A stretch of 64,000 bases of DNA from Escherichia coli (GCF_016903815.1 NZ_CP069974.1), one strand, 5' to 3'. Positions 61,401 through 64,000 are shown, numbered from the stretch's first letter. A program made the numbers.

Positions 61401-64000
61401 TTTACGGGCCACTGATAATCTTTGTTTCTCTGCATCAGAAAGCGGATTCCCCTTTCTGTATGCTCGTTTTGCGCCAGATGAGGAAGTCACTGTATTTTCT
61501 GTCTGCGACATCTCGCCTCCTCAATACTTAAACAGGGATCGTTTCGCAGAGAATACTACAGTTTTTTGAAATCAGCGACTTGAAAGTTGTGACGATGATC
61601 TGTGTTGGCGCACAAATCATGTCTGATTACGACCGTTTAATGTAATTTTGATAATAAAATGACTGAAAAGTAGGAAATGCTTTAACCAGGGTACCGGCCC
61701 CGGGCGGGACCGGCAGTTTCTAGCATTTCGGGTGTCTGCCCCTGAAATACCTCACACTTCCGGAAAGCGGGGACTTCCGTCCCCGCCCGGCAGCTTACTT
61801 CCGTGCTTCAGGCCAGAGTTACCTGCACCACTGTATTTCCCCTGTGAATATTCAGTTCACATAACTGTTCCCTGAATATCAGTGAAAAACACAACACCGT
61901 GGCGCACACGGCAAGCAACCCGATAAGGGTATATTTCGTCATAAACTTTGACATCTTTGCAAAGAAGAGGCTACAATCAGTAGTGCTAAAGTGCATCATG
62001 CAGACCTCACGAGTTAATGGATTAACGAGTGGGGTCTTCGCATTTCTGAAACCTGCGTCTTATTCAGCCATTCTTCGGTCATCTGCAGCAGTTTTCTTGC
62101 ATCGTGACTTCTGAGCAACGGAATGCCAGCCTGCCTCAGAACCTCTTCCAGAAGAGTATCCCAGCATCTGCGTTCCGAACGTAAATGACTGTCATCAGCC
62201 AGCTATACTGCTGCAACAATACTGAACGAACGCCGTTCAACGATAACCACATCGACATGCACTGAGATACCATCCTGAATAACAGCCACCACTGGCGCGA
62301 TCAGATATTAGTTGTCTGGAGATTCAGGGGACAACCTAACTTGAGCCCGCTATAGCGCGAAGCCGAAAATTATTGTTCGTATGCTCCCGCTGGTCCAGAA
62401 TGGGAATTTCCTCTGGCTGATGTTGAACTGTCATGGAGAATTGAAACTTGTTTAAGACTTTGGCAGCCTACTGTTTTTAATACACCCAATAAGGTATGAA
62501 GATGAAACTAGGGAAGTTAATACCGCCATGAAAAGATAAATAATACCCGTGGAATATATTTCCTCATGTTACTCTCCATATCAAATAAATGGCACCTGTA
62601 TTTCAGACATCCTGAATATTACAGCACACATTGAACAACACCTTATTTTGTGAAATTAATCACAAAATATAAAATCTCGACTTAATACGGAAAAAAATCT
62701 GTGCTACTCAGAACTGTCCGGTCATACTTCCCGACCGGATATTAAAAAAAGCAAATCTCATAAACTTCTTTCAGCCTTCTGACTCCTGGAGTAATGAAGG
62801 CTGCTTTTTTCGTTACCCCCTTCCCCGGCAACGCCGGTGGCAGTGTGCAGCCCTTTTTCGGGCAAACTGCTGCCAGTCTGTCCGGGGCGCAACACCGGCA
62901 GCCCGTCGCCATGCTTCTGCCGCTTCCATCCTGCGTCCACTGACCTCCAGAATAACGGCCCGGCTTCCGGCACGCTGCCAGCACCAGACCTGACCGTTCC
63001 GTGAACTGTTTCTGAATCCATTCATATTTCTGTCCCCCTTTAGTTGTCAGTATTATTGTGATAAATAGCTCAGTGGAATGGCTTTCTTTCGGGTACGGAA
63101 GTTATTTCCTTTTAAGCCTTATTTCCCTGCCTCCCCTCCCTGAGGGAGGCTTTTTTTATTTCTCATCAAGCACGGCCTGAAGTTCTGCCTTTATCCGGTT
63201 CTGGCGGCGGATTTTATCCAGACGCGCTGCCGCATACGCTTCCTCCTCCTGAGAAATATGCTCCGTCACATACCCTTCCGTATCATACCGGCAGGCACCG
63301 GCTTTCATGGCACACAGATAGCTTTCTGAACGGGTGATGGCCTTCAGCGCCCTGCGCAGTTTTTTATGCGAGAGCGGGATATTCCGCTGCGCCACGTCTT
63401 CCAGTAACACGTCCCGGATACCGCAGGCCAGAAGCCGGGGCGTGTCACCGTCAAATAATCCCGGCCACCAGGGCTTCAGGGTGTTCACAGCCTCATCCAG
63501 TGTGGGCAGGTTCAGATAAATGGACAGCGCCTGTCTGGCCTGCGCTTTTTTTGCCGCCAGCTCTGCTTCCCGGGCTGCTTTCTCGGCCAGCTTCTGCTTT
63601 TTCACCTTCCACTTTGGTGGCGTGGTGACATTGATGATGGTTTTCCGGCTGCGGACAGGCGTCTCCCCTTCCGTTTTCCGCTTCAGTGTCAGTACCGGTC
63701 GCTTCTGCTCTGTCATGCTGTGTTCTGCCTCTGACGAATCATCCTCTTGCGGCCAAAGATACCACACCCGTCACAGCGCCAGAACGCCCAGCACAGCCAG
63801 ATGACAGGCGTAGAATACCGGGAAAAAATCCCCGGGCCAGAAACGGGGTAATGATTTTCCTGCACACGACACCAGACCAACGGTCAGCACCGTCATCACA
63901 AGACCGGCCACCGCCGCTGCATCACTGGTGGCAAGGTTAAGCGCCGGAATAACAGCCAGCAGGCAGGCGACCAGCGCCAGACGTTCCGCTCTGTCTTCCG

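Follow-up and report, generated by a model that had tools for sequence, protein, structure and literature searches.

The srnB/srnC Locus and Its Toxin Gene

The window analyzed here is a stretch of 64,000 nucleotides (nt) of Escherichia coli DNA (GCF_016903815.1, NZ_CP069974.1), and the element under study within it is the srnB/srnC module, a hok/sok-family toxin–antitoxin module of type I found on F-type plasmids. Its toxin gene, srnB′, has lost 2 bp near the 3′ end and with them the last five residues of the encoded protein. The locus occupies the finO–srnB–copB position, which is that of srnB in F-type plasmids; in relatives, the gene order is traX–finO–small open reading frame (ORF)–(DUF2726 remnant)–toxin–copB–tap–repA1. 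The annotation of the identical sequence in plasmid pRSB225 recognizes two overlapping components, srnB ("leader region of the killer mRNA") and srnB′ (toxin). On the minus strand, the ORF at 61808..61999 gives the translation MMHFSTTDCSLFFAKMSKFMTKYTLIGLLAVCATVLCFSLIFREQLCELNIHRGNTVVQVTLA*, a 63-residue product in which leader and toxin are in frame. The toxin coding sequence itself, the shortened srnB′ allele, occupies 61808..61942 (minus strand) and encodes 44 residues (MTKYTLIG...VTLA*). The NCBI Prokaryotic Genome Annotation Pipeline (PGAP) likewise places the toxin start at the internal ATG at 61942 and lists the 44-residue product as WP_023144756.1, a "Hok/Gef family protein". No second hok-family gene is present within the window.

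Membership in the family is supported by a match of the toxin to the Pfam profile HOK_GEF (PF01848) that scores 36.3 bits (cut-off, 22), covers profile positions 2–40 of 42, and leaves the two final positions (Y-E) unmatched. The long form of the protein, described below, scores 37.3 bits. The 44 remaining residues are 95% identical to the common 49-residue SrnB′ form, and the substitutions that set the toxin apart from the common alleles are A5T and R26Q. The transmembrane segment with the C-x-T motif (LIGLLAVCATVLCFSLIF) and the periplasmic L-C-E motif that follows it (REQLCEL) are both present, and C13, T15, and L27 are invariant in the Hok family alignment. The C-terminal Tyr/Cys of the family is not present, as its codon is destroyed and the protein ends at the preceding Ala. 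In the family alignment, the stop falls directly after this invariant Ala and before the Y/C column, which corresponds to Y48 of Hok R1 and C46 of HokB.

The 2-bp Deletion at the 3′ End of srnB′

In the window, the 3′ end of the gene reads ...CTG GCC TGA AGC ACG GAA GTA A, with the TGA stop of the toxin at 61810..61808. In all other aligned alleles, the toxin is 49 residues long and ends in GCC-TAC-GAA-GCA-CGG-AAG-TAA (...LAYEARK*). Alignment with eight other alleles of the locus contains one 2-base gap, the sequence being GCCT[AC]GAAGCACGGAAGTAA everywhere else, and this gap is the sole difference within a 100-column stretch that is otherwise invariant. The deletion junction maps to 61809..61810 (minus strand), where the AC of the Tyr45 codon TAC is missing. 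The deletion removes Tyr-Glu-Ala-Arg-Lys from the product, which stops after Ala44. The former 3′ coding end, GAA GCA CGG AAG TAA (E-A-R-K-stop), remains as an orphaned and now out-of-frame sequence at 61795..61809 (minus strand), and in the allele alignments its 15 bases (61809..61795) are 100% conserved despite the loss of frame.

These alignments bear out what the first-pass annotation had read from the sequence, namely that the frame ends early through the loss of two bases after GCCT and that their restoration would give the ending ...LAYEARK*. Exactly the AC of the TAC codon is absent, and the restored ending matches that of the other alleles. The accompanying suggestion that the gene encodes a C-terminally shortened SrnB-type toxin also holds, given the HOK_GEF match, the 95% identity to the 49-residue SrnB′, and the naming in pRSB225. 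The reading of the gene as a toxin–antitoxin lesion presupposes a loss of toxicity, which is likely. The short ending is not the normal form of the protein; the long ending is the majority form, and a contig exists that is otherwise identical to the window and carries the long ending.

Distribution and Ancestry of the Short Allele

The frequency of the allele was determined with two queries, a 421-nt query corresponding to window positions 61640..62060 and a 74-nt query across the junction that separates short and long forms by identity band. The 421-nt allele occurs at 99% identity or higher in 386 of the 2920 PLSDB plasmids that carry the locus, and the top matches that were sampled are 100% identical. 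Among complete E. coli genomes, the srnB locus is present in 1989 of 5426. Using the junction query, the short form was found in at most 475 PLSDB records, a band that includes some partial matches, vs. 2247 records with the long form, and in at most 414 vs. 1630 records from complete E. coli genomes. Of all records that hold the locus, the identical 421-nt allele accounts for roughly 14% in PLSDB and for about 19% among complete E. coli genomes. The exact 44-residue protein is encoded on at least 1000 contigs. Human, canine, bovine, and wild-bird isolates are among the carriers of the allele, as are the Klebsiella plasmid pKF3-140 and the wastewater plasmid pRSB225. The deletion is therefore real and inherited.

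A full-length twin of the short protein also exists in nature. This protein (P0031), which carries the markers T5 and Q26 together with the YEARK ending, is encoded on only 12–20 contigs. One of these, contig L005, is the same as the window over all 421 nt except that AC is present, and it encodes the 49-residue P0031. The exact full-length twin is absent from the complete plasmids of PLSDB, and everything that matches it best there is the short allele, with 99.5% identity. In a set of about 140 variants of SrnB-type proteins, linkage of the ...VTLA* ending to the REQL marker is nearly constant, which argues for a single origin of the short allele. On the basis of these sequence comparisons, the short form is almost certainly derived, and the long form would be ancestral for both the locus and the family. 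It is proposed that the allele arose once from a 49-residue ancestor and then spread on successful multi-replicon IncF resistance plasmids, with the allele itself presumably hitch-hiking.

The Lost Tyr Codon and TadA Editing

The deletion falls on a codon of known interest in the Hok family. The Tyr-46 codons of hokC, hokD, and hokE are recoded to Cys through A-to-I editing of the mRNA by TadA, and the edited Hok Tyr codon is always TAC and never TAT (PMC5630033). The full TadA editing motif, YTACGAA, is that of the tRNA-Arg2 anticodon loop (PMC12255301). In HokB, a periplasmic disulfide forms between C29 and C46, and the C46S substitution abolishes editing-dependent toxicity (PMC12214031). 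In a set of 1264 unique Hok peptides, the position is occupied by Cys (34%) or Tyr (62%), 96% together, and when it is Tyr the next codon is GAA, so that the TACG site is kept (bioRxiv 10.1101/2025.08.07.668861). These family-wide figures for the C-terminus are those of the preprint, as the homologue search performed here with the 49-residue form reached only close SrnB-type relatives.

Long alleles of srnB′ read C-TACGAA at the Tyr codon, an exact match to all seven positions of the YTACGAA motif. The window lacks the edited A and the C that follows it, and the motif is destroyed. Given the agreement with the edited chromosomal genes, the ancestral srnB′ site may have been a substrate of TadA. 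A tRNA-like hairpin around the ancestral TACG was also considered and set aside; although one is possible, its stability does not exceed that of shuffled sequence.

Leader, Antisense RNA, and the Toxin Shine-Dalgarno Sequence

The regulatory elements of the module accompany the shortened toxin gene. The leader ORF srnB, the analogue of mok, extends over 61808..61999 (minus strand) in frame with the toxin and has a GAGG Shine-Dalgarno (SD) sequence upstream of its ATG, with a calculated anti-SD duplex energy of −6.4 kcal/mol. The in-frame arrangement is common to the window and the F-type alleles. In other common alleles (L003/L004), a 1-nt deletion places the leader out of frame, and its TGA overlaps the ATG of the toxin (ATGA; window 61990–61999, alignment column 71). 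As both architectures coexist in nature, comparison of the alleles suggests that translation of the leader matters rather than the leader peptide.

A strong promoter-like site for the antisense RNA srnC, which is Sok-like, lies at 61948..61977 on the plus strand and consists of TTGACA, an 18-nt spacer, and TACAAT. It matches 11 of 12 positions and is the only sigma-70-like site in 61550..62250. The putative SrnC antisense RNA, whose ends are predicted and placed relative to this promoter, spans 61984..62050 (plus strand). It has a 5′ tail complementary to the translation initiation region of the leader, a long hairpin with a minimum free energy (MFE) of −24.1 kcal/mol (z-score = −3.5), and a U-rich end. 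A scan of 61200..62400 with the Rfam sok model returned a weak match of 24.7 bits, compared with a gathering score of 59, and gives no support for membership in that family.

The lineage of the short allele also differs from others at the toxin SD position (61952..61958, minus strand; alignment columns 104–108), where it reads AAAGATG and other alleles read GGGAGG or GAGAGG. The rare long twin has AAAGATG as well. The calculated anti-SD duplex energy at the toxin is −0.9 kcal/mol in the window lineage vs. −11.8 and −7.2 kcal/mol in the other alleles. The toxin SD and the −35 box of srnC share bases on opposite strands (61948–61958), and a single A at 61953 (plus strand; C in other alleles) changes the SD from GAGG to GATG and the −35 box from TTGACC to TTGACA. 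On the toxin strand, this substitution is G to T, and the −35 box becomes consensus. Judged from the sequence, the loss of the SD, the improvement of the −35 box, and the truncation would all act toward less toxin.

In the MFE fold of the putative 405-nt mRNA, the predicted 5′ end of the toxin mRNA (tac-like; 62040..62059, minus strand) pairs with a predicted 3′ fold-back element (fbi-like; 61661..61680, minus strand). Within this predicted tac/fbi helix, one lineage-specific change in the 3′ element, G to A, turns a G·U pair into an A-U pair. The MFE structure and energy are alike with and without AC (−150.0 kcal/mol for both), and AC sits in an unpaired bulge of the predicted fold. An effect of the deletion at the RNA level was therefore rejected, as the predicted fold and its energy are unchanged. 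Separately, a terminator-like hairpin and T-run (TGCCGTGTGCGCCACGGTG TTGTGTTTTT) was observed at 61895–61913 (minus strand), inside the part of the toxin coding sequence that specifies the transmembrane helix. Probably the match is fortuitous, or else the hairpin belongs to the mRNA's internal structure.

Likely Effect on Toxicity and Alternative Explanations

In the canonical system, the toxin mRNA is stable, and 5′–3′ fold-back pairing together with a short-lived antisense RNA keeps it from being translated. The antisense RNA acts by blocking the leader ORF, to which translation of the toxin is coupled. When a segregant lacks the plasmid, this RNA decays, and the cell is killed by the small membrane toxin. 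In other Hok toxins, the Cys that arises by recoding pairs with the Cys in the periplasmic LCE motif. The short toxin retains its transmembrane helix along with most of the hairpin in the periplasm. Killing is most likely strongly reduced or lost, because such a protein is unable to supply the conserved Tyr/Cys residue.

Mutational data on hok of plasmid R1 point in the same direction. At native expression, both Y48N and M46I were recovered as loss-of-function mutations by FASTBAC-Seq, and C-terminal extensions also abolish toxicity (PMC9841398). In the same study, 20 codons are a single substitution away from a stop codon, and for 18 of them the stop was recovered as a suppressor (PMC9841398). 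A codon count made here on the hok R1 sequence gives exactly 20 such codons, in agreement with every mutation named in PMC9841398, and Y48, E49, and K52 are among them. Since 18 of the 20 were recovered and three of the 20 lie at codon 48 or beyond, at least one stop at or after codon 48 must be a loss-of-function mutation. On the R1 data, a toxin that terminates at the counterpart of A47 would be expected to be strongly attenuated or inactive. By this analogy, the truncation probably disables or strongly attenuates killing. The best overall explanation, and one that is considered likely, is an attenuated or dead srnB′ toxin hitch-hiking on successful plasmids.

Several points weigh against this interpretation. 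With regard to ancestry, the approximately 140 nt around the deletion are without lineage markers, and contig L005 could be a recombinational revertant instead of the direct ancestor; whichever status L005 has, the ancestral state of both locus and family is the long form. With regard to editing, the local hairpin presenting CUACGAA is weak (−4.3 kcal/mol, z-score = −0.5). In the R1 argument, two of the 20 stop codons are missing from the suppressors. Across hundreds of plasmids, the ORF and all RNA elements are preserved and have not decayed further, which fits continued function, although it equally fits recent clonal spread. E49A and six other alanine substitutions at conserved residues of Hok R1 are toxic when overexpressed, as are 42 of 45 diverse Hok homologues, and the transmembrane region of HokC, which is intact in the toxin studied here, carries determinants of toxicity.

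The last of these points also underlie the strongest alternative, in which the 44-residue toxin is still fully functional, its last five residues being dispensable and the short form a viable length variant in an active addiction module. This is consistent with the intact transmembrane helix, C-x-T motif, and LCE motif, with a Pfam score that is barely altered (36.3 vs. 37.3 bits), and with the entry of the protein in databases (WP_023144756.1) and in a recent catalogue (peptide 1754 of cluster 76) as a Hok peptide like any other. It agrees less well with the loss of function caused by Y48N, M46I, and at least one stop at or after codon 48 in Hok R1, with the presence of Cys or Tyr at the lost position in 96% of Hok peptides, and with the effect of C46S on editing-dependent toxicity in HokB. 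The toxin SD is also lost in the same lineage. The high frequency of the allele and its lack of secondary decay also speak for full function, but the lack of decay is uninformative, since the copies are 100% identical and hence recently spread. Full function of the short toxin is therefore regarded as unlikely.

An adaptive origin is more doubtful still. Here, the deletion, the disappearance of the SD, and the up-mutation in the −35 box would have been co-selected, disarming the toxin while SrnC is kept, and the supposed anti-addiction benefit, for which the case is just as slim, would be a lower plasmid cost or protection of the host from related srnB loci on competing plasmids. Three changes in one lineage do each cut toxin output or raise antitoxin output, the short allele far outnumbers its full-length twin (at least 1000 vs. 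12–20 contigs), and the antisense gene is intact with a near-consensus promoter. However, the SD and −35 changes are a single base and so one event, not two, and the frequency is accounted for just as well if the allele hitch-hikes on successful resistance plasmids. Identical copies permit no test of selection, and the frequent and varied sporadic disruptions of the gene suggest simple mutational decay that is tolerated. In the most elaborate version, to which little credence is given, loss of the TadA-editable Tyr codon would prevent formation of the disulfide-locked, highly toxic isoform and, with the linked SD and −35 changes, turn the locus into a net antitoxin producer. If true, the disarmed module would contribute to the success of pandemic IncF plasmids.

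A two-base miscall in one assembly, which had been raised only as an a priori possibility in the first-pass annotation, is refuted for practical purposes by the recurrence of the 100% identical 421-nt allele across PLSDB and complete E. coli genomes in hundreds of independently sequenced plasmids from varied hosts, countries, years, and platforms, including the Sanger- and 454-era records of pKF3-140 and pRSB225, and by the lack of a homopolymer at the deletion site; for such a fixed and widely inherited allele, inspection of raw reads is unnecessary.

Comparison With Related Systems

The closest known system is srnB/srnC of plasmid F, which occupies the same position (traX–finO–…–srnB–copB) as the locus in the window and resembles it in the overlapping leader ORF, the antisense promoter and hairpin, and the predicted 5′–3′ fold-back. 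In contrast to plasmid F, the window toxin lacks YEARK and the toxin SD, its antisense −35 box is TTGACA and not TTGACC, and it carries A5T and R26Q. The hok/sok system of R1 belongs to the same family and shares its regulatory logic, and the truncation aligns to the A47|Y48 boundary of Hok. No better proxy for the window toxin is available than the mutations studied in R1 (Y48N, M46I, premature stops). Hok of R1 and this toxin are only about 30–36% identical, and mok of R1 is out of frame with hok, whereas the leader in the window is in frame. A further related system is that of chromosomal hokB, hokC, hokD, and hokE with Tyr-to-Cys mRNA editing by TadA; full-length srnB′ alleles have the exact YTACGAA at the homologous Tyr codon. 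Relative to the TadA-edited chromosomal hok genes, the window is without the site, and editing of srnB′ is putative.

Natural lesions tolerated by the host replicon are also known from inactivated chromosomal hok loci and from sporadic disruptions of srnB′. Low-frequency lesions of SrnB′ in public assemblies (P0046–P0144) include N-terminal deletions, such as one beginning MCHFRLLAVCATV... on 183 contigs, along with frameshifted C-termini, IS26-type read-in fusions, interruptions by insertion sequences (IS), and in-frame deletions. The number of independent lesions indicates that disruption of the toxin is recurrent and tolerated. Compared with these, the lesion in the window is minimal (2 bp, five residues) and spares all the RNA elements, and no other single variant is nearly as widespread.

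The srnB/srnC system has long been known, and the short peptide is already in RefSeq. A recent catalogue of Hok proteins has it too, in cluster 76 as peptide 1754, where it is unremarked, and a literature search found no paper discussing the short srnB′ allele as a truncation. What is new is the frequency of the allele, the isogenic long twin, the coincidence of the deletion with the TadA motif, and the linked SD/−35 change. In descriptions of IncF resistance plasmids, srnBC is routinely counted as an "addiction system". The short allele is found in about one-sixth of plasmids with the locus and in about 7% of all complete E. coli genomes; if it is inactive, such tallies overstate the working toxin–antitoxin content of very successful plasmids. 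Though real, the deletion is an ordinary lesion, and the addiction system that it affects is well known. It also amounts to an experiment of nature on what the conserved C-terminal Tyr/Cys, and TadA editing, do in Hok toxins, and an isogenic pair differing only in AC occurs naturally.

Genetic Neighborhood

On one side of the module, finO is located at 63156–63716 (minus strand), 1214 nt from the toxin start. As this distance is the same as in relatives, the end of the tra region is contiguous with srnB in the window. On the other side lies copB/repA2 of the adjacent RepFII replicon (61257..61511, minus strand), identified as an ORF that is annotated in relatives as "replication regulatory protein RepA". 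It is followed by an IS21-family element (ISEc12-like; 58602..61182, plus strand), which was delimited by the break in collinearity with contig L005 and is annotated as ISEc12 in relatives.

The IS21-family element contains istA (58795..60336) and istB (60348..61097) and is inserted 74 nt downstream of copB, which it separates from tap/repA1 (57509..58378). The collinear segments overlap by 6 bp, which would fit a target duplication. The insertion probably uncouples or inactivates FII replication control. A link between the truncation of srnB′ and the insertion of ISEc12 in RepFII was considered and rejected, as the short allele is also seen beside an intact RepFII and, in another case, beside ISEc12 at a different position. 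The position of ISEc12 varies among relatives; in L005, the element lies downstream of repA1, and another contig, L014, has it within copB.

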